A stretch of 47,088 bases of DNA from Chloroflexota bacterium (GCA_023480825.1 JAMCWQ010000077.1:1-47088); one strand, 5' to 3'. Positions 1 to 47,088 are shown, counted from the stretch's first letter. The notes: generated from the sequence alone by a model not told the origin. A program made the numbers and translations.

Positions 1-339
1 CGCCGGAGCTTGGAGAGGGGGTAGTGCCCGGAATCTGAGCAGATCAGCGGGAGTAGTGAAGTTGTAGATGGTGCCGCCGTGAAAGAACCCGACTTTGGAC
101 TCCAGCCACTGCATTTTAGACCGGAGACCCAGTTCGTCGATCAGATTGAGGACCGCCTGATCGCTGGTGAACAGATGGTGATAGAAGACCTCCAGGTCTG
201 TACCGGCAATGGGGAAGGTAGATGCCTGTCCTCCAAGCCGGTCGCGTGTTTCGAAGACCGTCACCTCATGGCCTCCACCAGCCAGCCGGTAGGCGGCAGT
301 CAGTCCCGCCATTCCTCCACCAATCACTGCTGTCTTCAC
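1..339 (-). CDS. NAD(P)/FAD-dependent oxidoreductase (amine oxidase/protoporphyrinogen oxidase-like), partial (runs off window start)
   Basis: Manual translation from GTG at 339 gives [41 protein letters not shown]...FYHHLF. This has a GxGxxG Rossmann motif and the GG motif. Not in the ORF track because it is open at the edge. Confidence 0.85.
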
Positions 340-385
340 GGTTTGAAACTACCCCCATTCTTGATCCGCAAAATGAATAGATCCC

Positions 386-429
386 CAAAAAGCTAAAGAG
401 GGGACGGCAGCAAGTCCTGTGCCGTCCCC
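386..429 (-). terminator. Rho-independent terminator after hppA
   Basis: GGGGACGGCA...TGCCGTCCCC inverted repeat (400-429), followed on the minus strand by a T-rich tract. Confidence 0.7.
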
Positions 430-475
430 CCGGTATCATACTGGTTGGGCTAGCCCTAATGCCTGGCTCCGCTGG

Positions 476-2566
476 CTATATGAACAGCGGGGCGAACACC
501 AGCGTTAGCGTCGATAGCAGCTTGATCAGAACATGTAGCGATGGGCCTGCGGTGTCCTTGAAGGGGTCACCCACCGTGTCTCCTACGACCGCAGCCGCAT
601 GGATCGGTGTTCCCTTCTTGACCGGAACTCCATTTAGGTCTTTCAGGTTCCCCGCCTCGATAAACTTCTTGGCGTTGTCCCAGGCGCCACCACCATTGTT
701 CATAACAGTGGCCAGGATGATTCCGGCCATGGTGCCCACCATCAGCAGGCCGGCCTCTGCTTCTGCACGGAGCAGGATGCCCACAACAATTGGGGCGCCA
801 ACTGCCAACAGGCCGGGCGCAATCATTTCCCGTAGGGCGCCGCGGGTGCTGATGTCCACGCACCGGGCAAAGTCGGGCTGGGATGTTCCTTCCATGATTC
901 CCGGGTCCGCACGGAATTGGCGCCGCACCTCTTCGATCATACGGCTGGCCGCCCGGCCGACGGCGCGGATTGCCAGCGAGCTAAACAAGAATACCAGCAT
1001 GGCCCCGACTAGCGCTCCGACGAACACACTGACGTTGGCAAGGTTGACCGTATTGAACGGCCGTCCGGTCAACTGGGCCACTTTGTCGAGGTAGGCCGAG
1101 AAGAGCAGGAACGCAGCCAAGGCGGCGGAGCCGATTGCGTAACCTTTGGTAAGTGCCTTGGTCGTGTTACCAACAGCATCTAGCCCATCTGTGATGTCGC
1201 GGATCTCTTCCGGCGAGCCTGACATCTCGGTAATTCCTCCGGCATTATCGGTTATGGGCCCGAAGGTGTCCATGGCGAGGATGTAGGCGGCGGTCATCAG
1301 CATGCCCATTGTGGCGATAGCTGTTCCGTAGATTCCGCCACCGGAGAGGCCGCTCTGTGATCCTACCCAGTAGGATGCCAGCAGCGCGACTGAGATCGAG
1401 ATCACCGGCAGGGCGGTACACTCGAAGCCGATAGCCAGACCGGAGATGATGGTCGTGGCCGGCCCGGTTCGGGCAGCATCCGCTATCTCTCGCACCGGCC
1501 GCCAGCTGCCGGACGTGTAATACTGCGTGATGTAGACAAAAGCAATGCTCGTCGCAATGCCAACCACTCCAGCAATGAAGAACTGAATCATGCCGAGCAT
1601 GAAATGGGTGGCCAGGAACATACCTATCACAGACAGAATGGCTGCAACGTAGTAACCCCGGTTCAGAGTCCCCATGGCGTTGGTTGTCCTAGGGCCCGGA
1701 CGAACGGACAGCAAGCCCACAGCACAAGCCACGATTCCAAGGGCTCGAACAACCAGAGGGAAGAGAATCCATGCGGGGTTGTGAGTCTGGGCGAAGACTG
1801 CGACGCCCAGTATCATCGCACCGATGTTCTCGGCGGCTGTGGACTCGAACAAGTCCGCGCCACGGCCTGCGCAGTCACCAACGTTGTCGCCTACGAGGTC
1901 GGCAATGACTGCCGGGTTCCGGGGGTCATCCTCCGGTATGCCAGCCTCGACTTTGCCAACAAGATCGGCGCCGACGTCCGCGGCCTTGGTGTAGATACCA
2001 CCACCCAGTTGGGCGAACAAGGCGACGAAGCTAGCGCCGAAGCCGAAGCCGACAATCAAGAACGGGGCCTTATCGGGGGCGGTAGCGCCACCAAAAGCAT
2101 AGAAGATACTAGCAACGCCGAGCAGGCTCAGCGCGACGACGAGGAATCCGGAGACCGCTCCACCTCGTAGGGCCACTGTGAGGGCTTCGCCAAGGCTACG
2201 CCGTGCGGCGCTGGCCGTGCGGATGTTCGATCTAACTGCAATGTACATGCCAATGAAACCGGCGAGGGCCGATAGGCCGGCGCCTACCAGAAAGGAGACA
2301 GATGTTTGGATGCCCAGAATCCAGTCATAATTTTGAAAGATGGCTATCAGGGCTCCTATGATGATTGCACCGACTACCGCCAACATGCCGATGGTGCGGT
2401 ATTGTCGGTTCAGGAACGCCATGGCGCCCTGATAGATCATTCCAGCGATCGTCTGCATGGCAGGTGTCCCTTGATCACGGCGCAGCACGTCCCAAGCAAG
2501 GTACATGGCAAAAGCAACAGCCCCGAGGCCAGCTATGTAGACAATTGCCACTTCAGTCCAGTTCAC
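476..2566 (-). CDS. hppA: Membrane-bound H+-translocating pyrophosphatase, K+-independent type
   Basis: Motifs GGGIYTKAADVGADLVGKVE, DNVGD and GDTVGDPFKDTAGP. GNTTKA (Lys) is the K+-independent signature. GTG start at 2566 follows AAGGAGG. Confidence 0.95.
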   Translation of the reverse strand: MNWTEVAIVYIAGLGAVAFAMYLAWDVLRRDQGTPAMQTIAGMIYQGAMAFLNRQYRTIGMLAVVGAIIIGALIAIFQNYDWILGIQTSVSFLVGAGLSALAGFIGMYIAVRSNIRTASAARRSLGEALTVALRGGAVSGFLVVALSLLGVASIFYAFGGATAPDKAPFLIVGFGFGASFVALFAQLGGGIYTKAADVGADLVGKVEAGIPEDDPRNPAVIADLVGDNVGDCAGRGADLFESTAAENIGAMILGVAVFAQTHNPAWILFPLVVRALGIVACAVGLLSVRPGPRTTNAMGTLNRGYYVAAILSVIGMFLATHFMLGMIQFFIAGVVGIATSIAFVYITQYYTSGSWRPVREIADAARTGPATTIISGLAIGFECTALPVISISVALLASYWVGSQSGLSGGGIYGTAIATMGMLMTAAYILAMDTFGPITDNAGGITEMSGSPEEIRDITDGLDAVGNTTKALTKGYAIGSAALAAFLLFSAYLDKVAQLTGRPFNTVNLANVSVFVGALVGAMLVFLFSSLAIRAVGRAASRMIEEVRRQFRADPGIMEGTSQPDFARCVDISTRGALREMIAPGLLAVGAPIVVGILLRAEAEAGLLMVGTMAGIILATVMNNGGGAWDNAKKFIEAGNLKDLNGVPVKKGTPIHAAAVVGDTVGDPFKDTAGPSLHVLIKLLSTLTLVFAPLFI

Positions 2567-2847
2567 TAACAACCTCCTTGATCTTGAATCCCTGGGGTAA
2601 TAGCCGGACAACTTTGTTCACTGAATAGTTCTGAGATTCTACTGTCCTTTGTTTGTGGCGTTTGATCCCTCCTACTTTCACCGTCTTTGAGTAGTCATTC
2701 CCTCCTCGAGACGGCGGTCTTCATGATCGAGATATCTCTTTCACTGCACAACACGGGGGTGTTGCTGCTGCCGTTTGAGCTATCCCAATTCATTAACTAA
2801 GTGACGCCGGGCGACCCACAGAACGCAATGGCGAATCATTAAGTTCG

Positions 2848-3780
2848 TTAGCTGCCTTGTACTACAGCTTGGCGGCGCCTAAACCTTCTGAAGAAGTTGC
2901 CTACTTCTCCGTTCTCCCAGACTACTAACAATAGACTGGCGTTGAAGATCGAGGAGTAAGTACCGCTGACGATGCCGATCAGCAGCGCCAGAACGAAACT
3001 GTGAATCGTTGTCCCTCCGAACAGGAACAAAGCAGATAGAGTAACAATCACAGTGAGAGATGTTGTCACCGACCTCGCCATGGTCTGGAGGAGGCTGTGG
3101 TTGACAACGTCTTCATAACTGCCCCCAACGTTCTTGGTGGCGTTCTCCCGAATCCGGTCGAACACCACGATCGTGTCGTGGACTGAGAAACCGATGACAG
3201 TTAGAAGAGCGGTGACGAATAGGGAGTCCACTTCGATACCGAAGACCCTGCCTAGGATGGAGAAGACACCGAGAACCAACAGTCCGTCATGAAGCATAGC
3301 TATGATGGCACAGACACCGTAGCGCACTGGGCGCTTGACCTTTCGGAAAGCGAAGGAGATGTAGGCCAGAATTCCGATCGCAGCCGCGGCCACCGCATAG
3401 ATTGAGTTTGTGGTCGTCTGACTGCTGACCAGCGGGCCAACAGACTCGAACCTCAACTCAGTGAACTGGCCGAATTTGTCGGTAAGCGCTTTACTAACTT
3501 GGGTTTTAAGAGTGGACCCAGCCTGCAGATTGGGCAACCTGATCAGAATACCGTTCTGACCTGATGTCTGCACAGTAGCATCTTTCAGCCCATTGTCGGC
3601 CAGGACGGTCTTGACCTCTCCCGGCATGACTTGGTGTTGGAAGCTGAGTTCCCACAGGGTGCCACTGGTAAAATCGATGCTGAACCTCAGACCGAAGAGC
3701 GCCAAGGAAATAAGGCCCGGAACGATGACAATAAGCGAGATAAGAAAGAACCAATATCGCTTGCCGACGATGTCAAGCAC
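2848..3780 (-). CDS. secF: Protein translocase subunit SecF
   Basis: IDFTSG, VGP and GFSVHDTIVVFDRIREN motifs; 6-TM pattern. Confidence 0.95.
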   Translation of the reverse strand: MLDIVGKRYWFFLISLIVIVPGLISLALFGLRFSIDFTSGTLWELSFQHQVMPGEVKTVLADNGLKDATVQTSGQNGILIRLPNLQAGSTLKTQVSKALTDKFGQFTELRFESVGPLVSSQTTTNSIYAVAAAAIGILAYISFAFRKVKRPVRYGVCAIIAMLHDGLLVLGVFSILGRVFGIEVDSLFVTALLTVIGFSVHDTIVVFDRIRENATKNVGGSYEDVVNHSLLQTMARSVTTSLTVIVTLSALFLFGGTTIHSFVLALLIGIVSGTYSSIFNASLLLVVWENGEVGNFFRRFRRRQAVVQGS

Positions 3781-3864
3781 TGTGAAGCCCCCATCGCGAA
3801 TAAACTGAGCCGGCAGACTGAAGACTGGCCGGCCTCAAAAAGACAGAAAAAAGCAACGCGCGAC

Positions 3865-3893
3865 AGTATACCAGAGATTGCAGGCCGCTACAA
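3865..3893 (-). promoter_or_regulatory. Putative sigma70 promoter for secF
   Basis: Minus strand TTGTAG-17 nt-TATACT with TG extension. Confidence 0.5.
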
Positions 3894-3942
3894 AGAGCCT
3901 GTTCGAGATCCCAGGGAGCGCCCCTGGTCTGTGATGGTGACA

Positions 3943-4236
3943 TCAAAAAGAATCCAGAGCCCTCGTGGCCCTTCGTACATACCTCCAGGACAGGATGCTC
4001 ACGCCAAACTGGAGGGTAGCGGCCAGCGCGCCGCCAAAGTAGAAGGCCAGGGAAATGCCCGCCAACGCGGCTGCGGCAAAGAAATAGCGGTCGAGCCGCT
4101 TGCTGTAAAGTCTCGGCGCTCCGAGCAACACTGCCAGTATTACGAAGCTCACGATGACGAGAAACGCAAATGCAATCAGATTGATGGTCGTTCCCGCCAG
4201 AACACCCTGCATTATTCTCACAACACGAACCGCCAA
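3943..4236 (-). CDS. Small hypothetical membrane protein between secD and secF
   Basis: 97-aa ORF with 2-3 hydrophobic segments, co-directional with secD/secF; start uncertain. Confidence 0.55.
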   Translation of the reverse strand: MAVRVVRIMQGVLAGTTINLIAFAFLVIVSFVILAVLLGAPRLYSKRLDRYFFAAAALAGISLAFYFGGALAATLQFGVSILSWRYVRRATRALDSF

Positions 4237-4275
4237 ACCACGGGATTAGGGCAGCCAAGGGGCTGCTCCTGTTAC

Positions 4276-5811
4276 TCAACTGTTTGCGGGCCTTGCCTCA
4301 CCTGCTGCAGCATTATCGGTGCCAGCCGACCCTCTATCTAGCCCGAAGAGCCACCGTTGACGGGGAGATAGCTTCGCCACTGCCGGAAACAGCCATTTCT
4401 GGGTCGCCGCAAGGAAGTTGCGGGTGACGGTGATGGCGGTGAACATACTCACTACTACGCCGATCCCCAGAGTGAAGGCGAAGCCCGTTATCATGCTTAT
4501 CCCCATTGCACTACCAAACCAACCGAGTATCAAACAGGTTATGATAGTGGAGATGTTGGAATCACGGATTGAAGGCCAGGCATGCCTGAATCCGGCGTCC
4601 ACCGCCGCAGCAAGGGTGTGGCCGGCGCGCAACTCCTCTTTGAGCCGGGCGAAGATCAGGATGTTGGCGTCGACTGCCATCCCGATTGACAGAATGAAGC
4701 CCGCAATGCCGGCAAGTGTCAGCGTCACCGGAATGACCTTGAAGAGGGCGAACACCATGGCGGTATACATTAGAAGAGAGATATCGGCGAGCAGCCCGGG
4801 TAGCCGGTAGTAGACTATCATGAAAGCCAGCACCAAACCGAGGCCGATCGCTCCCGCCACCAAGCTCTTTTGCACGGAATCCTGACCCAAGGTCGGCCCG
4901 ACCGTGCGGTCTTGTACCACCTGCAAAGAAACCGGGAGGGCACCGTATTTCAACTGCAGAACAATCTTCTGCGCTTCGTCAAGGCTTACACCCTGAATAA
5001 CGCCGCTCCCCCCGGTGATGGGGCTTTCTATGACCGGGCAGGAGATAACATGCTTGTCTACCACAATTGCCAAATACTTGCCGACGTTAGCTGACGTGAA
5101 ATCACCAAATTTTTTGGCTCCCTCCGACTTGAAGCTGAAACTAACCTCAGGAGCGCCAAGCTGGTCGAAGGTAACATCCGATTTGCTGAGGTCCGACCCG
5201 GTGACCACAGTCTGGTAGACTGTCTGGCTAGGGGAGGCGGCTTGGCTCCCGGTGGTGGTAGTCGGTGTGACCGTGTTTGTCGATGTCACGGTCCCGCTAG
5301 CCTCCGGGGTGGGGCTTGCAGAAGGAGTTGGGCTAGGCGTCGCGCCACTCGCAGCCGTGCCGCTTATTGGGGTAGTCGGTCCCCCGAGGCTAGTGGTTAC
5401 TACGCTGCCAATCGGCAGGGGGGTGGAGCCGGCATCGATGAACTCGAGAAGTCCCGTCTCGCCGAAAGCGGCAATCGCCTTGTCGGGGTCCTTAATGCCG
5501 GGGAGCTCCACAATTATGCGGCTGTCTCCCTGTCGCTGGACCAAGGGCTCAACTACTCCGAGGGCATTTACCCGCTGCTCGATGATCTGCTTTGCCGCTT
5601 CCAGGGTGTCGGCGTTCGGTGCGGTTCCCTTCGGCCACTCGGCTTGCAGGAGCACCTGCATTCCACCGAGCAGGTCAAGCCCCTCGTGAACGCTTATATC
5701 CCGCTTGAAGCCGAAGATATCAATCCCGGAATTGTTTGGCAGGTCGATCCACGCCGCAATGCCAACGATGGCCACAATGATCAGAAGCCAGTATCCTGTG
5801 CGTATCCGCAA
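4276..5811 (-). CDS. secD: Protein translocase subunit SecD
   Basis: GLDLLGG, RVNALGVVEP and IGMAVDANILIFARLKEE motifs. Confidence 0.95.
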   Translation of the reverse strand: MRIRTGYWLLIIVAIVGIAAWIDLPNNSGIDIFGFKRDISVHEGLDLLGGMQVLLQAEWPKGTAPNADTLEAAKQIIEQRVNALGVVEPLVQRQGDSRIIVELPGIKDPDKAIAAFGETGLLEFIDAGSTPLPIGSVVTTSLGGPTTPISGTAASGATPSPTPSASPTPEASGTVTSTNTVTPTTTTGSQAASPSQTVYQTVVTGSDLSKSDVTFDQLGAPEVSFSFKSEGAKKFGDFTSANVGKYLAIVVDKHVISCPVIESPITGGSGVIQGVSLDEAQKIVLQLKYGALPVSLQVVQDRTVGPTLGQDSVQKSLVAGAIGLGLVLAFMIVYYRLPGLLADISLLMYTAMVFALFKVIPVTLTLAGIAGFILSIGMAVDANILIFARLKEELRAGHTLAAAVDAGFRHAWPSIRDSNISTIITCLILGWFGSAMGISMITGFAFTLGIGVVVSMFTAITVTRNFLAATQKWLFPAVAKLSPRQRWLFGLDRGSAGTDNAAAGEARPANS

Positions 5812-5862
5812 GAATTTCTCCCCCTAGCATGAACGGGCGGTTGGGCTATCTACAGTCTGATG

Positions 5863-5926
5863 ATTATATCTAATGGCTTCCAAGGATGTCAACGACTTGC
5901 CGGTCACAACCCTGCTGCGTTATAAT
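5863..5926. promoter_or_regulatory. Back-to-back sigma70 promoters for secD (minus) and gltX (plus)
   Basis: Minus: TTGACA(5892-5887)-18-TATAAT(5868-5863). Plus: TTGCCG(5897)-18-TATAAT(5921-5926). Confidence 0.65.
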
Positions 5927-5964
5927 GCACGAACGCGGCCAGTTTTTGCCGATTGGGAGGACCT

Positions 5965-7452
5965 GTGAGCGATAGGGACACAGTACGGGTGAGGTTTGCG
6001 CCAAGCCCGACGGGAACACCACATATTGGGAATATTCGCACTGCGCTTTTCAACTGGCTATTTGCGCGCCATCACGGAGGCAAATTCGTACTGCGCATAG
6101 AAGATACTGATGTGGCGCGCCGTGTTCCTGGAGCGGTTGAATCTATTTTGGACGCCTTGCGGTGGCTAGGACTACAGTGGGATGAGGGACCCGAGGTCGA
6201 TGGGCCTTATGGTCCGTATTATCAGTCACTAAGGCTTGATCTTTACCAGTCCCTCGCGGAGAGGTTGGTGGCAGAGGGAAAGGCCTACTATTGCTTCTGC
6301 ACCCAGGAACGACTCACAGAGATGCGGAAGGAGCAGGAGGCCCGCAAAGAGCCGCCCGGCTACGACCGGCTCTGCCGTACGCTCTCTGAAGCCGATGTTC
6401 AGGCCTGCTTCGAGAAGGGGCTGAAGCCCGTAGTGCGCTTGAAGGTTCCACTTGAGGGCGAGACCTCCTTCCACGATCTCATTCGGGGAGAGATCACTTT
6501 CGCCAACGCGGTCCTTGATGACCTGGTACTCCTGAAGTCGGACGGGTACCCGACTTATCACCTTGCCAACGTGATCGACGATCACTATATGAATATCACG
6601 CACGTAATGAGGGCGGAGGAATGGATACCCAGCACTCCCAGGCATATTCTCCTGTACAAAGCCCTCGGCTTCGAGCCGCCCATTTTTGCCCATCTGCCGA
6701 TAATTCTCGCCCCCGATAGGAGCAAGTTGAGCAAGCGGCATGGTGCTACAGATACCGGCTGGTACCGAGAGCAGGGATATTTGCCCGAGGCCATGGTCAA
6801 CTACATGGCGCTACTTGGTTGGGCTTACGACGAGAAGCAAGAGATCTTCACCATTCCGGAATTGATCGAGAAATTCGAGCTCGGCAAAGTCAATCCTACC
6901 GGCGCGGTCTTTTCCAAGGACAAGCTGGACTGGATGAACGCCTACTATATCAATCACGTCGTCGGCGTAGAGGAACTCGCTGCACGCTGCCTGCCGTTCT
7001 TGCAGAATGCCGGGCTTGTGGCGCCGGGGAGTCCCGCCGATGTTCGGGAGTTCCCCTATCTTTTGAGCATCGTGCCGCTGATCAAGGAGCGCATGAAGCT
7101 CTTGAGTGAGGTTGCCGACCTCACCGACTTCTTCTTCCTTGATGATCTTCACTACGACCCGCTGGCGTTGGTGCAGAAGAAGATGACGCCGGAATCGACC
7201 CTTGCGGCACTGGAGTCCGCTGAACAGGCCCTCTTGCCGCTACGCGATTGGAAAGAAGAAGCACTCGAAGGGACGCTGCGGCCTTTGGCTGAAAACCTCG
7301 GCCTAAAGCCTGGCCAGCTTTTCATGACGCTCCGGGTGGCGATTACCGGGCGAACCGTATCGCCAGGGTTGTTCGAGACAATGGAGGTGCTCGGACGCCA
7401 GCGTACGCTTCTGAGAGTGGCGAGGGCGGCCGATGCACTGCGAAACATGTAG
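5965..7452 (+). CDS. gltX: Glutamate--tRNA ligase
   Basis: RFAPSPTG, HIGN and KLSKR class I motifs; GTG start after GGAGG. Confidence 0.97.
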   Translation: MSDRDTVRVRFAPSPTGTPHIGNIRTALFNWLFARHHGGKFVLRIEDTDVARRVPGAVESILDALRWLGLQWDEGPEVDGPYGPYYQSLRLDLYQSLAERLVAEGKAYYCFCTQERLTEMRKEQEARKEPPGYDRLCRTLSEADVQACFEKGLKPVVRLKVPLEGETSFHDLIRGEITFANAVLDDLVLLKSDGYPTYHLANVIDDHYMNITHVMRAEEWIPSTPRHILLYKALGFEPPIFAHLPIILAPDRSKLSKRHGATDTGWYREQGYLPEAMVNYMALLGWAYDEKQEIFTIPELIEKFELGKVNPTGAVFSKDKLDWMNAYYINHVVGVEELAARCLPFLQNAGLVAPGSPADVREFPYLLSIVPLIKERMKLLSEVADLTDFFFLDDLHYDPLALVQKKMTPESTLAALESAEQALLPLRDWKEEALEGTLRPLAENLGLKPGQLFMTLRVAITGRTVSPGLFETMEVLGRQRTLLRVARAADALRNM

Positions 7453-28333: not shown

Positions 28334-28408
28334 CGCGGGGTGGAGCAGTGGCAGCTCGTCGGGCTCATAACCCGAAGGTCGGTGGTTCGAATCCACCCCC
28401 CGCTACCA
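28334..28408 (+). tRNA. tRNA-fMet (initiator, CAT)
   Basis: CGCGGGG acceptor with unpaired C1, GGG-CTCATAA-CCC anticodon arm, GGTTCGAATCC and encoded CCA. Confidence 0.95.
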
Positions 28409-28441
28409 GTGACGGCGATCCATCAGAGAGGCCTTCTCGAT

Positions 28442-28516
28442 GGCGGTGTAGCTCAGAGGTAGAGCAGGGGACTCATAAGCCCTTGGCCGTAGGTTCGAAT
28501 CCTACCTCCGCCACCA
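28442..28516 (+). tRNA. tRNA with CAT anticodon, probably elongator tRNA-Met (tRNA-Ile2 not excluded)
   Basis: GGCGGTG acceptor stem, CTCATAA loop, GGTTCGAATCC and encoded CCA. Confidence 0.9.
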
Positions 28517-37751: not shown

Positions 37752-37824
37752 GCGGGTGTAACTCAGTTGGCAGAGTGTCTGCTTCCCAAGCAGAATGTCG
37801 TGGGTTCGAATCCCATCACCCGCT
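37752..37824 (+). tRNA. tRNA-Gly (CCC), CCA not encoded (followed by CCG)
   Basis: GCGGGTG/CACCCGC acceptor stem, CTGC-TTCCCAA-GCAG anticodon arm, GGTTCGAATCC and U73. Confidence 0.95.
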
Positions 37825-37840
37825 CCGTTTACGGCATCAG

Positions 37841-41330: not shown

Positions 41331-42491
41331 CTAGGGCGTCGTTGGGGGGTTGCACACATTGCATGGTCTATATCCCGCCGCAATTGCCTCACTTGGCCTA
41401 TCCCAACAAATGAGATGGGTTATCCTCGCCACATACCGGCACGTCGGCTCGTGATACACGTCGCTTTCTGTGCTGCCACAGACCTCATACGTGGCCGGCT
41501 CCTGAGTGGGCTGCACGGTAGGCTGTGGCGGAGGAGTCGGGACAACTGTCGGCACTTCGGTTGGGATAGCTGTCGGGACCCGAGTGGGCGCTACGGTGGG
41601 TTCCTGATTAGGGCCTCCTGCGTATCCATACCGCCAGGTGAAATAGTGGCGGCCGATGTTTCCCATCTCCACCTGCCAGCCCTCGGGATTGCCAGGCGTG
41701 TAGGTCATAACGCGCCGCTCGAACGCCTGGATGAGCACCCACTTAACTTGCCCGGCCACTTTCGCCTGTGCCCAATAGGCTTCGGTGATCGGGAAACCGG
41801 TGGCAAAGAAGGTCGGATCGAACAACCTTCCCTCCCGGAAGGCCCCGGCCTCCATCACCAGGCCGCTCGAGTTGAGAAAATCCCAAAAGACACTGGCAAC
41901 GGCGTGATCTGTTTCGGGTACATAATAAGCGGCAGTCACTCCGGCCGGGCCGCCGGCTCCCACTTGACCGCTACGGTCCACAATCTCGGTCAACTGCTCG
42001 CCGGCGGCATGCGGTGTCCTTGAAAGTAAGCCGGCGAAGGTGGCGTAGGTCGGGCCATTGGGGTCGTCAGGATCGCCCGCTACCGGAATCTGAGCGGGAG
42101 ACCTTGCTTCGAAGTTGGCATCGCCTTTCTGAAGCTGCCCGCTAATGAGCTCTTTGGCCAGCAGCCCATTGGTCACGAACCATTGACTGCTCCTATCTCC
42201 ATAGGGATTGTTGATCTCCATCCGGCTCTTGTCGAAGTAGGTGACGAGGCGGGAGCCGCCGGCAGCTTGATCATACTGTTCCTGCCGGGTGTCGAAACTG
42301 CCAGGTCCCCACATCCAGGTGCGAGATACGCTGCCCTGCTGTACGGGAAGGTCGCTACGATTCCACACATTCTCGAGGGCCGGGTCGGGCAAGGACATGG
42401 GAGCTTTCAGCGCGGCATTCGATATCGTTGGCAACAAGACTACTACGGCAATAACCAAAGGGAGAACAGTGAGAAACACCTTGCGTTTCAT
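41331..42491 (-). CDS. Secreted protein: Chloroflexi-type surface domain, Pro/Thr linker and C-terminal Ada-like Zn-binding domain
   Basis: Signal peptide MKRK+hydrophobic+SNA; RTWMWGPG...YFDKSRMEI...VTNGLL domain; PTxxPT repeats; VYHEPTC...AIAAGYRPCNVC. Confidence 0.8.
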   Translation of the reverse strand: MKRKVFLTVLPLVIAVVVLLPTISNAALKAPMSLPDPALENVWNRSDLPVQQGSVSRTWMWGPGSFDTRQEQYDQAAGGSRLVTYFDKSRMEINNPYGDRSSQWFVTNGLLAKELISGQLQKGDANFEARSPAQIPVAGDPDDPNGPTYATFAGLLSRTPHAAGEQLTEIVDRSGQVGAGGPAGVTAAYYVPETDHAVASVFWDFLNSSGLVMEAGAFREGRLFDPTFFATGFPITEAYWAQAKVAGQVKWVLIQAFERRVMTYTPGNPEGWQVEMGNIGRHYFTWRYGYAGGPNQEPTVAPTRVPTAIPTEVPTVVPTPPPQPTVQPTQEPATYEVCGSTESDVYHEPTCRYVARITHLICWDRPSEAIAAGYRPCNVCNPPTTP

Positions 42492-42880: not shown

Positions 42881-43180
42881 CTAAGCTCTCAGTTTTGCCC
42901 TCTTCGTCCGGCGCAGAACCTCATGCGTTCCACCATCGTCTATTGGGATTCCCTTTGCCACCGAGATATGCTTGTCTAGAACGTTTCCCGATAATATGTA
43001 AGTCACCTCTCCCGCGTCTACGCTATAAACATTGCAGCTCGCGTCATCCTCGTAGATTATGACCAAGCCCTCATCGGCATTGTCCACTCCGAGGTCCACT
43101 CTAACAACTCCATCGACGTACACCGACTTAGAGCTCTCATCCGGCTCCGGCGATCCCACTCGTGCTCCTACTTTTGTCAT
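42881..43180 (-). CDS. Hypothetical protein
   Basis: 99-aa ORF with GAGGT SD; followed by a GCGCCGCT/AGCGGCGC hairpin with a T tail. Confidence 0.6.
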   Translation of the reverse strand: MTKVGARVGSPEPDESSKSVYVDGVVRVDLGVDNADEGLVIIYEDDASCNVYSVDAGEVTYILSGNVLDKHISVAKGIPIDDGGTHEVLRRTKRAKLRA

Positions 43181-43369: not shown

Positions 43370-44413
43370 CTATACCTGCTCCCCTCCTGCCGGCCGGCTG
43401 AACCGGGACCGGGAGCGAACGGACGATCGTGCGAGCCGGGTACCGGTGTTGTTGCCCGTCCCTGTGCCGTGCGTCCGGAAAATGGCCGCGTGCACTACGA
43501 CATCCATATAGACTAGCGCTGCTCCGGTGGCGCCTGTTCCCTCGAATCTGACGTCGTGACCCAAGGCGAGCGAGGGGAAGACTTCGCAATTGGCATCCCG
43601 TACCCTTTCCAGCAGCCTCACCGCCCGTTCGCGTCCCACGGGACCGCCTTTCTCGCCGTCGATAGCATCGAGGGAATAGCTGCGGATGAGCTTTGGCCAC
43701 AGTATGGCCGCCGTGCGCTCCTGGTCGAACAGGTCTGCGCCCGCAATATGGCCGTTCATGGCCACAATGAGCCCGGCGGCTCCCGCTACAGGGGCCAATG
43801 CCGCCTCGTAATCTTCTAGGGTTTCCCTCCGGGACCGGTAGATATCGTTCATGGCTCCGGTGCTGGACGAAACGTGCATTTCCTCCTGCTTGACGGCAAG
43901 ACTCTCCCAGATCGCCGCTTGATTAGCTGAGTGCCGTCCGGTGTTACGCAGCCCCATTCGCACCTGGGCGTCCTTCTCTCGCCTGATATCGAAATCAAGG
44001 CCTTCGCCGACTGCGAAGACATCAGATGTTTCGTGCCAACGGCCGGCTTCCACACAGGACACCGGAATGACGACTTTGTCGCCGGTGCCGACCAGGAAGC
44101 TGGCATTGACTATCCGGTTCTGCTTGCCACCGGTGATCTCCTCGCCGTCCAGCACGAGCACCATCACGTCGCCCCTATTGTGCAACACCAGTTCAGGCAC
44201 GGTGCCGCCTCCCCGCTCCCGCACGGTTACGCTTCCTTCCAGGATGGCTTCACCGAGAGTGCGGTACTCGAGCCTCGGCAGGGGATGTCCTATGCCCCTA
44301 AGGAACAGGGGGAAGACAACCATGTTCCCGTGCTCGATTCCCTCCCCGACATCCAGGGTTCTGAGCCTCTCCAAGACAGTCTGACATAGCGTTAAGTTTT
44401 CTCCGGTCTCCAT
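43370..44413 (-). CDS. ARPP-1 / DUF6569 family protein
   Basis: NMVVFPL, TVPELVLHN, DGEEITGGKQNRIVN, PVSCVEAGRW, QAAIWE and DLFD...LWPKLIRSY motifs; ATG after AAGGAG. Confidence 0.82.
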   Translation of the reverse strand: METGENLTLCQTVLERLRTLDVGEGIEHGNMVVFPLFLRGIGHPLPRLEYRTLGEAILEGSVTVRERGGGTVPELVLHNRGDVMVLVLDGEEITGGKQNRIVNASFLVGTGDKVVIPVSCVEAGRWHETSDVFAVGEGLDFDIRREKDAQVRMGLRNTGRHSANQAAIWESLAVKQEEMHVSSSTGAMNDIYRSRRETLEDYEAALAPVAGAAGLIVAMNGHIAGADLFDQERTAAILWPKLIRSYSLDAIDGEKGGPVGRERAVRLLERVRDANCEVFPSLALGHDVRFEGTGATGAALVYMDVVVHAAIFRTHGTGTGNNTGTRLARSSVRSRSRFSRPAGGEQV

Positions 44414-44794
44414 TCTTTCGTTCTCCTTTGTGGACCAAGCCAACTTCCGTTTTTCTCTGGGCTTGCTTCCAGCCATGTATTCTTCGCACCGGTCAGAAAA
44501 ACTTCTCTCCATCTATTAATACGAACCTTGGCAGGAAAACCCTTGGTAGCTTTCCCGTGCACATTGAACCAAGTGAATTGCTTCGGCAATTCGTATACAT
44601 ATGCGGGGGGATTCGAAGATTTGGTTAGCCGGATACCTTATGATGCGAGCAGACCGGCGCACAGGTGTATAATGGAAGAGGCAGTGAGAGCCCGGCCGGA
44701 ACTCTCGCGGTGGCATCTTGTGCAGGGATCCGGGGTTCTACTGGAGATACAGGTCACGATAGCATACCCGCATGAGGGGGTGACCGCCCATCAG

Positions 44795-45376
44795 ATGAAC
44801 AGTGGTGTCACCTACTCCGAGCTTTCAGCCCTGCGAACATACGGCGTCCTCTCGGATGCTCAGCTACTGCTGCTCTACAAGAACGGTGAGGCTGAGGCCA
44901 TCGGAGCGCTCTACGCGCGGCACGCCGGGCCGCTCTACCGGTTCGCTATCCGCAAAGGACTAACCCACTCCGACAGCGACGACTTCGTTCAGGAAGTCTT
45001 CGTCAAAATCATCAACTGCATCCAGGGATTCGACGCCGGAAACGCCAATAGCGAACACTGGATTCACACCGTCAAATACTCGGTGCTCTACGACTTCTGG
45101 CGGAAGCGCGGCAGGACGGACGGGAAGAACCAACAGATTCCAGAGGATGACGAGATTCCGGACGAACATAACGATCCGGAGGATGAGATCTTGGAGCAGG
45201 AGATACACGAGGCCTATAGGCGCGCTTTCCGCTCGATTCCCAAGGAAGACCAACTTGAGATTCTCCGCGGACCGGGGCGGGGTCCGGGCCGCAAGACCTG
45301 GCATGCCGCCATGGCAAGGCTCAAAGAGAGCTTTCTCGAATACTACAATGGAGTGAGGCCTGTAAGTGTCCACTAG
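44795..45376 (+). CDS. ECF-like RNA polymerase sigma factor with a degenerate sigma4 region
   Basis: SDAQLL...GEAEAIGALYARH...DDFVQEVF...W...DFWRK matches ECF sigma2; ATG after GAGGGGGTGA. Confidence 0.8.
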   Translation: MNSGVTYSELSALRTYGVLSDAQLLLLYKNGEAEAIGALYARHAGPLYRFAIRKGLTHSDSDDFVQEVFVKIINCIQGFDAGNANSEHWIHTVKYSVLYDFWRKRGRTDGKNQQIPEDDEIPDEHNDPEDEILEQEIHEAYRRAFRSIPKEDQLEILRGPGRGPGRKTWHAAMARLKESFLEYYNGVRPVSVH

Positions 45377-45956
45377 ATCGCCACACCAGCCGGACTACGA
45401 AAAGCGCAGCCTGGACCTCATCAACAAGATGAGGCGGTCGGCCGAGGCTGCCACGGAGCAACTCGGGCTACCCTCGGAGGCCAAGTACGACTTACTGGAT
45501 TCCATGTACGCTTCCCCTGCTAATCTCTCACTTGTCCCCGCTCTAGAGCGGGGCGCAGAGACCAATCCTCGCCTATACGAGGTAATCATGGGCTTTCTCG
45601 CCAGCTATATGCAGAACCGGATAAAGGACTTCCAGTCTCTCTGGCAAGACCTGCGGCGGGCGGAAGGGCTGGCATTGGCACCGATGCTCGCTCTAGAGGA
45701 CGTGCATTACTGCATTGCCGCCCCGCCAGACATGGAAGAACAACCACGTCTGGCCATGCCGAGGCTCTCCACCCGCCGCCGGTCGGAGCTCCTCGGCATT
45801 GTAGACGTGATGACGTGGTGGCTTGAACAGGAAGCTGAGACGGGGAAGCCGGTTGAGGAGAAAGCCATCGTCGATTATGCTACGCAGCAAGGCTGTTCGC
45901 CCAAGCTAGCCCGCTCAATGGCTGAGTACCTGGCGAAACTGAAGACAGGCGGCTAG
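45366..45956 (+). CDS. Hypothetical protein overlapping the sigma factor stop (anti-sigma/co-factor position)
   Basis: 196-aa ORF with GTG start after GGAGTGAGG, 11-nt overlap with the sigma gene and no TM helix. Confidence 0.75.
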   Translation: MSTRSPHQPDYEKRSLDLINKMRRSAEAATEQLGLPSEAKYDLLDSMYASPANLSLVPALERGAETNPRLYEVIMGFLASYMQNRIKDFQSLWQDLRRAEGLALAPMLALEDVHYCIAAPPDMEEQPRLAMPRLSTRRRSELLGIVDVMTWWLEQEAETGKPVEEKAIVDYATQQGCSPKLARSMAEYLAKLKTGG

Positions 45957-46112
45957 CGCGCGGAAGACCAACCACTAACCCTCTTCTTGGCCAGCGGTCA
46001 TTTACGAATTGATGGCGGTTAAGGTAGGTTGGGCCCCATACTGGGATGGTGGTACAGCCAAGAACAGCTTGGCATTAACACTAGTTAGAGGTGCAGAAGA
46101 GGAAGGCGAGAA

Positions 46113-47088
46113 ATGGCCACGACCGGTGACGGACCAGAGGAGGTCGATGACCTCGGGCTGGACCAGAAGGCGCTCGAGGCCCTCATTGTAGATAACCCGG
46201 ATCTGGAACGGCTGGAGGCTCTTCTCGGCCAGTTCAACATATTTGAAGCCATCGGGGCGGTGCGGCAGGAAGTTCGCCACTCCAATTTCCTCTCGTTTCT
46301 GCTGAACCCTCGTGAGACGCACGGACTGGGCGATGAGTTTGCTAAGCGGTTCCTTCAGAGGGTGCTTCTAACGAGCCCACAGCCGGAAATGCCCTTGAGA
46401 CCCATAGACCTCGACCTATGGTCCCTTGACGGACTAGTTATTCAGCGGGAGTGGGAAAACGTCGACATTCTCCTGCTTGATGAGTCCCATAAGTTGGCCG
46501 CGATTATCGAGAATAAGATCGACAGCACCGAGCGCCCAGGCCAGTTACACAGGTATTGGAACAGCACTAGCCAGCATTACCCCGGCTGGAGTATTGTAGG
46601 TCTCTACCTCACACCTAGTGGTGACGCCCCCGAGTGTGACATGTATTTGGCAGTTGGCTATAGCGTCGTGTGTGCCACACTAGAAAACCTGGTTGGCAGC
46701 CGGGCAGCATCGATGGGGCCTGATGTGCTCACGATGCTCCGGCACTATACCCAGATGCTCAGGAGGCATATCGTGGGAGAGTCTGAGATAGACTTGTTAT
46801 GCCGACAAATCTACCGAAAGCACCAACGAGCGCTGGACATAGTCTTCGAGCGCCGCCCTGATAGGCAGTCCGAGGTGCGGGTGATGGTAGAGGAGCTTAT
46901 CAGGGCAACACCCGGGCTGGTTCTCGACAGGACGTCGAAGACCTATATCGACTTCGGCGTCAGTGCCTGGGATGTCCCAGCCCTACTGGTAGGGAAGGGC
47001 TATACGATTTCTGGGCGGATACTGACATTCGAGTTCGCTAACAACGTGGACAACTTGAAGCTTCGTCTCGTCATTGGCCCTGGGCCGA
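46113..47088 (+). CDS. PD-(D/E)XK nuclease family protein (PDDEXK_4-like), partial (runs off window end)
   Basis: Manual translation: FNIFEAIG...QEVRHSNFLSFLLNPRETHGLG...REWENVDILL...IIENKIDS...GQLHRY...LYLTP. Open to the edge, so absent from the ORF track. Confidence 0.88.
   Translation, partial: MATTGDGPEEVDDLGLDQKALEALIVDNPDLERLEALLGQFNIFEAIGAVRQEVRHSNFLSFLLNPRETHGLGDEFAKRFLQRVLLTSPQPEMPLRPIDLDLWSLDGLVIQREWENVDILLLDESHKLAAIIENKIDSTERPGQLHRYWNSTSQHYPGWSIVGLYLTPSGDAPECDMYLAVGYSVVCATLENLVGSRAASMGPDVLTMLRHYTQMLRRHIVGESEIDLLCRQIYRKHQRALDIVFERRPDRQSEVRVMVEELIRATPGLVLDRTSKTYIDFGVSAWDVPALLVGKGYTISGRILTFEFANNVDNLKLRLVIGPGP

Follow-up and report, generated by a model that had tools for sequence, protein, structure and literature searches.

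At the 3' end of a 47,088-nucleotide stretch of DNA from a Chloroflexota bacterium (GCA_023480825.1 JAMCWQ010000077.1:1-47088; the whole stretch is called the window below), a gene of the ARPP-1 family lies divergent from a gene for a sigma factor resembling the extracytoplasmic function (ECF) class, which is coupled to a gene for an unnamed protein, here called the partner, and is followed by a nuclease gene. Our tentative reading, to which we give a probability of about 0.4, is that the ARPP-1 gene stands beside a lineage-restricted sigma switch, that the partner is a soluble, anti-sigma-like binder, and that the nuclease shares the islet as a single-gene defence candidate in its own right. 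The locus would then consist of three separable units lying side by side, namely the ARPP-1 gene, the sigma/partner bicistron and a PDC-S26-type nuclease. The sigma/partner pair would be a local transcription switch for the divergent ARPP-1 gene and would fill the regulator slot that is held elsewhere by WYL, Crp, MerR or other sigma-like genes. The partner would bind the sigma and keep it inactive, in the manner of an anti-sigma, until a signal releases it, and the nuclease would be a neighbour in a defence-like islet rather than an obligate component. Binding between sigma and partner, the target promoters, the inducing signal and any role in defence are what we infer. All four open reading frames (ORFs) of the locus are present at 43370-47088 in a scan of the window, and the four genes are real; nothing that we found shows that they work jointly as one system.

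An earlier note on this DNA had described the minus-strand gene as ARPP-1/DUF6569-like, and this is borne out by a match of its product to Pfam PF20208 at 283.6 bits (cutoff 27; E 2.4e-84) over model positions 2-297 of 297. The longest ORF spans 43370-44512, but the ATG at 44413 is the likely start, since a AAGGAGAA Shine-Dalgarno sequence lies about 8 nt upstream of it, a public gene call (P0015) has 347 aa, and the codons at 44414-44512 have a non-coding-like codon-position GC content. In this family a cysteine and a glutamine are described as absolutely conserved, and its describers predict that it acts on ribose or sugar moieties (Iyer et al., 2022, PMC9503650). Cys120 and Gln98 of the window protein fall in invariant columns of a 25-sequence alignment. 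An AlphaFold2 (AF2) model (predicted local distance difference test score, pLDDT, 85.7; predicted template modelling score, pTM, 0.84) is beta-rich, with two blocks of beta-sheet at residues 20-138 and 214-313; Foldseek finds nothing for it in PDB at E <= 1e-3 (best E 0.027, template modelling score <= 0.15), and the sequence has no match among PDB sequences. Relatives are encoded in at least 595 of 598 pattern-matched stretches of species-representative genomes, the best of them mostly in Chloroflexota. We describe it as a stand-alone gene for a predicted enzyme with invariant Cys and Gln.

Part of the case for a switch comes from what stands beside ARPP-1 in other genomes. The best 80 of the at least 595 confirmed ARPP-1 matches were fetched together with flanks of up to 6 kb, and two genes on each side were annotated with Pfam in 79 of these loci (264 ORFs, the first 125 at E <= 1e-5 and the remaining 139 at E <= 1e-8), L009 being dropped because a stop in its ARPP-1 match left no ORF. 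A regulator lies no more than two genes from ARPP-1 in 39/79 loci. WYL/WCX regulators are found in 20 of the 79, sigma-like genes in seven, receiver-domain proteins in four (all Methanobacteriaceae), Crp in two, MerR in two further loci, and GntR, NrtR-like, HTH_3 and HTH_26 proteins in one each; an ADP-ribosylglycohydrolase (ARG) is nearby in four. Nucleases and helicases also occur close to ARPP-1, with UvrD and PDDEXK_1 in L002, L003 and L017, DUF2779 in L013, L045 and L076, and ERCC4 in L066. These nuclease/helicase- and regulator-rich contexts agree with the ARPP contexts set out in section 3.8 of the published survey (PMC9503650).

The sigma-like neighbours, found with a small sigma hidden Markov model (HMM) that was seeded largely from those same hits and with Pfam, occur in L017, L038, L039, L043, L047, L065 and L004. 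In L017, from a Gemmatimonadota metagenome-assembled genome (MAG; 4833-6981), a sigma gene (r4_2), a gene for a 153-aa protein with a sub-threshold zf-HC2 match (E 9e-4) and ARPP-1 follow one another on one strand, with gaps of about 50 nt. L038 (3225-7584), L039, L043 and L047, all from Chloroflexota MAGs, carry a 551-aa ARPP-1-Macro fusion divergent from a gene for a 211-aa sigma-like protein that is recognisable only by its sigma4 (r4_2, about 6e-8), after which comes a gene for a protein of 628 aa with Macro and DUF4062 domains. With 84-90% identity along their full length, these four loci are counted as one lineage. L065 (Thermoflexus-like MAG; 248-3933) is a diverged member of the same arrangement, in which a 719-aa ARPP-1 ORF ending in an SNase domain is divergent from a gene for a 318-aa protein with a weak region-4 match; its tblastx identity to L038 is about 38% in the sigma-like region and 54% in the ARPP region, and the fused domain differs (SNase vs Macro). 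L004 has an ordinary ECF gene two genes 3' of ARPP-1. When 81 ARPP-1 domains are placed on a quick maximum-likelihood tree, the label 'sigma neighbour' needs three changes, one each for the window, the L038+L065 group and L017. The window ARPP-1 falls in a clade of 18 rows, mostly from Chloroflexota (Shimodaira-Hasegawa-like approximate likelihood ratio test, SH-aLRT, 97), to which L004 and the L038 group also belong. From this comparison, control of ARPP-1 by a sigma-type regulator appears plausible.

Some of these ARPP-1 neighbourhoods are recorded here in their own right. Downstream of the trio in L017 lies a UvrD-PDDEXK_1 helicase-nuclease pair. The ARPP-1 of L003, from a MAG labelled Sphingomonadaceae, is 53% identical to that of the window and is nested in the Chloroflexota clade beside L002, a placement that suggests horizontal transfer or a binning error; its neighbours are two UvrD/PDDEXK_1 genes and a divergently oriented WYL regulator gene. 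In L072 (Zetaproteobacteria MAG; 4210-6692) ARPP-1 has a Cas_VVA1548-family gene on one side and cas2 on the other, an arrangement suggestive of CRISPR association. The archaeal ARPP-1 genes of L031, L050, L063 and L069, from Methanobacteriaceae MAGs, form one clade on the ARPP-1 tree (SH-aLRT 89), and each follows genes for a PAS histidine kinase and for a receiver-domain protein that stands alone.

The description of the second gene as an ECF-like sigma holds for part of the protein. The sigma2 domain is matched by Pfam Sigma70_r2 (E 1.9e-10, 40.8 bits, cutoff 24) and by NCBIfam TIGR02937 (48.4 bits, cutoff 42.9), the latter over model positions 1-125 of 165, whereas for sigma4 there is no match to Pfam r4 or r4_2 at E <= 0.1. 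The NCBIfam model for the type III-E CRISPR sigma is matched weakly (33.1 bits, cutoff 100). The closest PDB relative is SigE of M. tuberculosis (9m9d_F), and the alignment with it, over residues 39-154, ends at the 'LP..' that begins region 4. Aligned with five ECF-type sigmas of the fetched loci, the window protein has lost about 20 residues at the sigma4 helix-turn-helix, the place of which is occupied by GPGRGPG (...EILR-GPGRGPG-RKTWHAAMARLKESF). What remains is an intact sigma2 domain in a protein that has lost the helix-turn-helix of sigma4 by deletion. A frameshifted or separately encoded sigma4 is ruled out locally, as a sigma4 HMM finds no sigma4-like stretch in the six frames of 44500-46200 (best 1.6 bits). 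Since the current ECF classification demands both the sigma2 and the sigma4 Pfam domain (Casas-Pastor, 2021, PMC7826278), the protein is formally outside the ECF class. Its ORF is intact, with a codon-position GC of 0.61/0.38/0.72, and a word-indexed search returned a single weak relative, a normal ECF (P0004; 38% identity over 51% of the query). The gene may start at the ATG at 44795 or at the ATG at 44672, which is the public gene call (P0003); the codons at 44672-44794 are coding-like by codon-position GC in a sample of only 41 codons. The gap of about 380 bp to ARPP-1 given in the earlier note is 381 bp with the first of these starts and shrinks to 258 bp with the second. A perfect TATAAT at 44668-44673 (+), preceded by TG, overlaps the alternative start, and from its position would be either a promoter, if the gene starts at 44795, or part of a sigma gene that begins at 44672.

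The partner gene begins with a GTG at 45366, overlaps the sigma stop codon (TAG, 45374-45376) by 11 nt and has GGAG/GAGG 7-12 nt 5' of its start; sigma and partner are translationally coupled. Profile searches of all four proteins assign ARPP-1, the sigma2 domain and the nuclease to families and leave the partner without one, as expected from its earlier description as a 196-aa unknown overlapped by the sigma: it has no significant match in Pfam, NCBIfam, PADLOC or PHROGs. A word-indexed search of 5.8 billion proteins returned one relative (P0002; 46% identity, on a 1458-bp contig), and an exhaustive HMMER search of 1.84 billion representatives returned 12 family members at E <= 1e-3, including that of the window. 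These are 122-206 aa long, except for P0009 (1023 aa, with six short matching stretches), and nine of the 12 align with one another and share an N-terminal 'EALGLPPEAKY', a central F...F..LW and a C-terminal 'RGCSxALSxxLAxYL' helix pair. A tblastn search of plasmid and phage collections gave no matches, none of 18 pattern matches obtained from a 5-sequence alignment in species-representative genomes, a set that apparently lacks the genome of the window itself, was confirmed, and the best E of the family profile against PDB sequences was 0.53. It can be seen that sigma and partner are both near-orphans and that the pair is rare. The AF2 model of the partner is all-alpha with two disordered loops and reaches pLDDT > 90 in the C-terminal helices (136-159, 165-174 and 179-195).

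Anti-sigma genes usually sit directly 3' of the ECF sigma gene (PMC7826278), and the partner gene lies directly downstream of the sigma gene. Because of this anti-sigma-type position, and because the protein is acidic (pI, the isoelectric point, 5.4; C-terminal 45 residues 5.2), we favour a protein binder over a DNA binder. The family as a whole is acidic (pI 4.95-6.3), with C-terminal 45 residues that are basic in P0005, P0006, P0010 and P0013 (pI 8.2-9.6). The window protein holds just two Cys and two His.

The same features can be read in another way, as a split sigma in which the sigma2 protein and the partner would together make one functional sigma. The C-terminal three-helix region of the partner would then stand in for the sigma4 helix-turn-helix in contacting the promoter or the beta-flap, in the manner of SigO-RsoA or Tn916 Sig7-Sig8. 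In favour of this, the sigma misses precisely the sigma4 helix-turn-helix, the two genes are translationally coupled, the confidently modelled C-terminal helices coincide with a helix-turn-helix-like family consensus, the C-terminus is basic in the four relatives named above, and split sigmas are an established kind (bioRxiv 10.64898/2026.10.01.756105; PMC7826278). Nevertheless, we consider a split sigma distinctly unlikely: profile-profile comparison of the partner family with the sigma alignment (hhalign) gives a probability of 0.6%, a sigma4 HMM scores -1.9 bits on the partner, the C-terminus of the window partner is acidic, and Foldseek finds no sigma4 or helix-turn-helix protein at E <= 1e-3. 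A soluble protein that binds the sigma is the role that we prefer for the partner.

Within the locus, the regulatory DNA offers leads. A scan for promoters and terminators gave background-level results, with no sigma70-type promoter called in 44414-44794. The 'T-tract ... CGAA' string that had been pointed out as a possible ECF-like -10 at 44483-44501 on the minus strand exists, but a 4-mer carries no statistical weight. No Rfam family was found at the locus (a long non-coding RNA match at E 0.94 is a chance one), the ARPP-1 5' region folded as RNA has a z-score of -1.22, and a repeat search of the locus found nothing convincing. The divergent region contains a perfect inverted repeat (Table 1), a candidate operator or bidirectional promoter element, which overlaps one of the only two exact copies of the 9-mer TACGAATTG in the 47-kb window; each copy is sense-oriented, one upstream of ARPP-1 and the other upstream of the nuclease gene. 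As the 9-mer was picked post hoc from shared k-mers, and the chance of a shared 9-mer is about 0.2 by a rough estimate, we treat it as a lead and not as evidence; with one mismatch allowed there are 4 matches vs 6.6 expected. A novel two-subunit sigma dedicated to ARPP-1, and perhaps to the PDC-S26 nuclease, through palindromic GAATTGC/TACGAATTG elements has in our view an outside chance; if true, a gene of ADP-ribose or nucleic-acid conflict would be switched at the level of the sigma factor.

The fourth gene, described earlier as a PD-(D/E)XK nuclease following the partner, encodes exactly that: PDDEXK_4 is matched at E 6e-24 (85.4 bits, cutoff 22.3), and PADLOC, in which the partner is unmatched, identifies the protein as PDC-S26 (PDLC04977) at E 1.1e-109 over model positions 7-317 of 400. 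The motif D118...E133-x-K135 is intact and does not vary between the window protein and three plasmid relatives aligned with it. The gene starts 156 nt past the partner stop and its 3' end is cut by the end of the window, so that the C-terminal 90-105 residues lie outside it; tblastn against plasmids gives relatives in 24 records, 30-39% identical to it, and the visible residues align over 92-99% of their length with plasmid relatives of 400-430 aa. The three plasmid contexts that were inspected comprise other nucleases and an insertion sequence (Leptolyngbya), two-component systems (Novosphingobium), and a methyltransferase, MazEF and a PIN toxin-antitoxin pair (Leptospira); in gene tables that are incomplete, none of the three has a sigma, ARPP-1 or partner-like gene beside PDC-S26. 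This solitary occurrence fits the treatment of PDC-S26 by PADLOC as a single-gene candidate, PDC presumably standing for phage defence candidate. The nuclease can be regarded, from its sequence and its relatives, as a candidate single-gene defence protein that is independent of the other three genes. Enterobacterales pipolins are reported to carry PDC-S26 as one of their frequent defence systems (PMC11551731).

The earlier note had proposed a candidate module; in its full form, the four genes would make up one inducible defence or stress module, in which sigma and partner would turn on both ARPP-1 and the nuclease upon infection or nucleic-acid damage. That the plus strand has no terminator-like site in the 156-nt gap between partner and nuclease would suit such a module, as would the placement of the two 9-mer copies, and nucleases or helicases of the restriction-endonuclease fold are often near ARPP-1 elsewhere (including the SNase fusion of L065), a pattern described by Iyer et al. 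(2022, PMC9503650). The co-occurrence search speaks against it: among ORFs of at least 60 aa in the 80 ARPP-1 loci, neither a relative of the partner (by HMM at E <= 1, and phmmer) nor one of PDC-S26 was found in any locus (0/80 each). With PDC-S26 standing alone in 3/3 plasmid contexts and treated as a single gene by PADLOC, and with the weakness of the 9-mer given above, we think the single module improbable.

Several observations also count against a sigma switch for ARPP-1. The absence of the partner and of PDC-S26 from all 80 loci is one of them, and the only match of the window sigma in those loci is the generic ECF of L004, 5 kb from ARPP-1. The contexts of the closest ARPP-1 relatives differ, with WYL in L003, MerR in L007 and unknown proteins in L004-L006; the upstream side of ARPP-1 in L001 and L002 is cut by the contig end, and their short upstream flanks hold no remnants of sigma or partner. 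Sigma-like ORFs are more frequent near ARPP-1 than farther away (7/264 vs 1/343, p = 0.024), but once L038, L039, L043 and L047 count once this is not significant (p = 0.17, Fisher). The partner has no anti-sigma signature, with no zf-HC2 (HxxxCxxC) or other anti-sigma domain in Pfam and no Foldseek match at E <= 1e-3 in PDB (best E 2.1) or BFVD (best E 0.17), and its model is only moderately confident (pLDDT 73.7, pTM 0.52). A sigma that lacks the sigma4 helix-turn-helix may be non-functional, and no promoter motif is established at the locus. The sigma switch proposed for ARPP-1 in the earlier note is plausible by analogy, in that adjacent regulators are usual and sigma-like genes are among them; the enrichment of the latter does not support it.

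These points raise the alternative of a chance juxtaposition, in which the genes would be functionally unrelated neighbours and the sigma would be decaying or repurposed and would not regulate ARPP-1. We regard this as a serious possibility that falls short of even odds. It draws on the absence of co-occurrence, on the near-orphan state of sigma and partner, on the replacement of the helix-turn-helix by GPGRGPG and on the loss of significance after related loci are collapsed, as well as on the abundance of ECF sigmas, which average about 10 per bacterial genome (PMC7826278). Against a chance juxtaposition, the sigma ORF is intact, has a host-like codon-position GC and is translationally coupled to a partner that is itself conserved. 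Conservation of the partner family over 12 representatives indicates selection on the partner at least, a dedicated regulator is very often found next to ARPP-1, and two or more further lineages have sigma-like genes there. Taking both sides together, a lineage-restricted sigma switch beside ARPP-1 is the reading that we tentatively prefer.

Table 1. Positions of the features at and around the ARPP-1 locus, counted from the first letter of the window.
Feature	Positions	Strand	Remarks
99-aa ORF	42881..43180	-	189 nt 3' of ARPP-1, same strand; gene status uncertain
ARPP-1 gene (PF20208/DUF6569)	43370..44413	-	347 aa
Divergent intergenic region ARPP-1/sigma	44414..44794		Ends at 44671 if the sigma start is ATG 44672
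Perfect 7-bp inverted repeat GAATTGC-TTCG-GCAATTC	44575..44592		Intergenic; candidate operator or bidirectional promoter element
9-mer TACGAATTG, second copy	44587-44595	-	174 nt 5' of ARPP-1, same sense; overlaps the inverted repeat
ECF-like sigma gene	44795..45376	+	193 aa, or 234 aa if the start is ATG 44672
Partner gene, translationally coupled to sigma	45366..45956	+	196 aa; acidic, all-alpha; rare unnamed family
9-mer TACGAATTG	46003..46011	+	102 nt 5' of the nuclease start
PDC-S26-type PD-(D/E)XK nuclease gene (PDDEXK_4)	46113..47087	+	325 aa visible of about 400-430

Outside the locus, the window is ordinary chromosome, with genes for an H+-pyrophosphatase, secDF, gltX, recA/recX, pyrG, an ATP synthase operon, a murA-like gene, mreB and ftsH, and the codon-position GC of all four genes of the locus is host-like, with the same pattern as recA, atpA and ftsH. 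A domain scan covered 29 of the 56 window ORFs of at least 150 aa (E <= 1e-5) together with six ORFs of the locus, 35 in all. As the earlier note had said, the usual companions of ARPP-1 are missing from the window: none of the 35 has an ADP-ribosylglycohydrolase (ADP_ribosyl_GH) or rhodanese domain, and Pfam shows no phosphatase (rhodanese-phosphatase, calcineurin-like, HD or HAD) coupled to ARPP-1 in the region 41-47 kb, although an ARG or phosphatase gene may be present in the roughly 2 kb of contig past position 47088. The HD-domain proteins of the window sit about 7 and 19 kb from the locus. The small ORF 3' of ARPP-1 has a weak match to phrog_26067 (E 4e-4) and a third-position GC content (GC3) of 0.56, below that of its neighbours, and relatives of it are absent from the 80 ARPP-1 loci. 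Farther out, at 41331-42491 (-), lies a gene for a protein of 386 aa in which a hydrophobic N-terminus is joined by a Pro/Thr-rich linker to a Cys-rich C-terminal domain. This domain just reaches the cutoff for Ada_Zn_binding (23 bits) and has a weak match to the 'sunset' domain of NCBIfam. The window also has tRNA genes, namely an adjacent pair for tRNA-Met(CAT) at 28334-28516 (+) and one for tRNA-Gly(CCC) at 37752-37826 (+), about 5.5 kb before the locus.

ARPP-1 is a widespread predicted enzyme, and identifying its switch would give an experimental handle on it. An intact, coupled sigma without the helix-turn-helix that reads the -35 element is a small puzzle of transcription initiation, pointing to a new class of soluble anti-sigma or to a new split sigma. 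Should the genes be merely juxtaposed, the value of the locus would lie in the annotation of a rare protein family, in the record of several kinds of sigma-like genes beside ARPP-1, and in another PDC-S26 nuclease.

Among known systems, the locus resembles the two-gene and ARG-centred ARPP neighbourhoods (PMC9503650) in that an ARPP-1 with Cys and Gln stands beside a regulator and a restriction-endonuclease-fold nuclease, in a setting described there as having variable accessory modules and displacement of functionally equivalent components. Unlike those neighbourhoods, the window has no ARG, phosphatase, Macro, NADAR, HIRAN, WYL or deacetylase partner, and its regulator is an ECF-like sigma with an unnamed second protein; the words 'sigma' and 'ECF' do not occur in the main text of that survey. 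The loci closest in layout are L017, L038, L039, L043, L047 and L065, in which a sigma-family gene lies immediately upstream of ARPP-1 or divergent from it, the L038 group sharing the divergent orientation of the window. Their sigma-like proteins keep sigma4 (r4_2), unlike that of the window, and have no specific relationship to it, phmmer with the window sigma giving no match to them; the second genes in L017 and the L038 group encode a zf-HC2-like or a Macro-DUF4062 protein and not a member of the partner family, and in the L038 group and L065 ARPP-1 is fused to Macro or SNase, which in the window it is not. The window nuclease differs from its three inspected plasmid relatives in following a sigma/partner operon.

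With regard to regulation, DdvS/DdvA of Myxococcus xanthus is an ECF sigma/anti-sigma pair that controls defence genes (PMC11506125). An ECF-type sigma and a co-encoded protein beside defence-type genes are common to that pair and the window, as is the proposed logic, in which the released sigma would induce its neighbours. DdvA is described as a transmembrane anti-sigma in which a CHCC zinc three-helix bundle is combined with a TPR-CHAT domain, and DdvS as having both sigma2 and sigma4 (PMC11506125), whereas the window partner is soluble, with no zinc motif or detectable anti-sigma domain, and the window sigma has no sigma4 helix-turn-helix. The two-subunit sigmas SigO-RsoA of B. subtilis and Sig7-Sig8 of Tn916 are likewise encoded by adjacent, co-expressed genes, one of them with partial sigma domains; their second protein has a recognisable region 4, whereas the window partner has no detectable sigma4 similarity. 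We conclude that the locus is a variant of the known neighbourhood of ARPP-1 with an adjacent regulator and a nuclease. Its logic is known, from sigma/anti-sigma control of defence and from two-subunit sigmas; what is new is the sigma without sigma4, the partner family, and the position of such a sigma beside ARPP-1.

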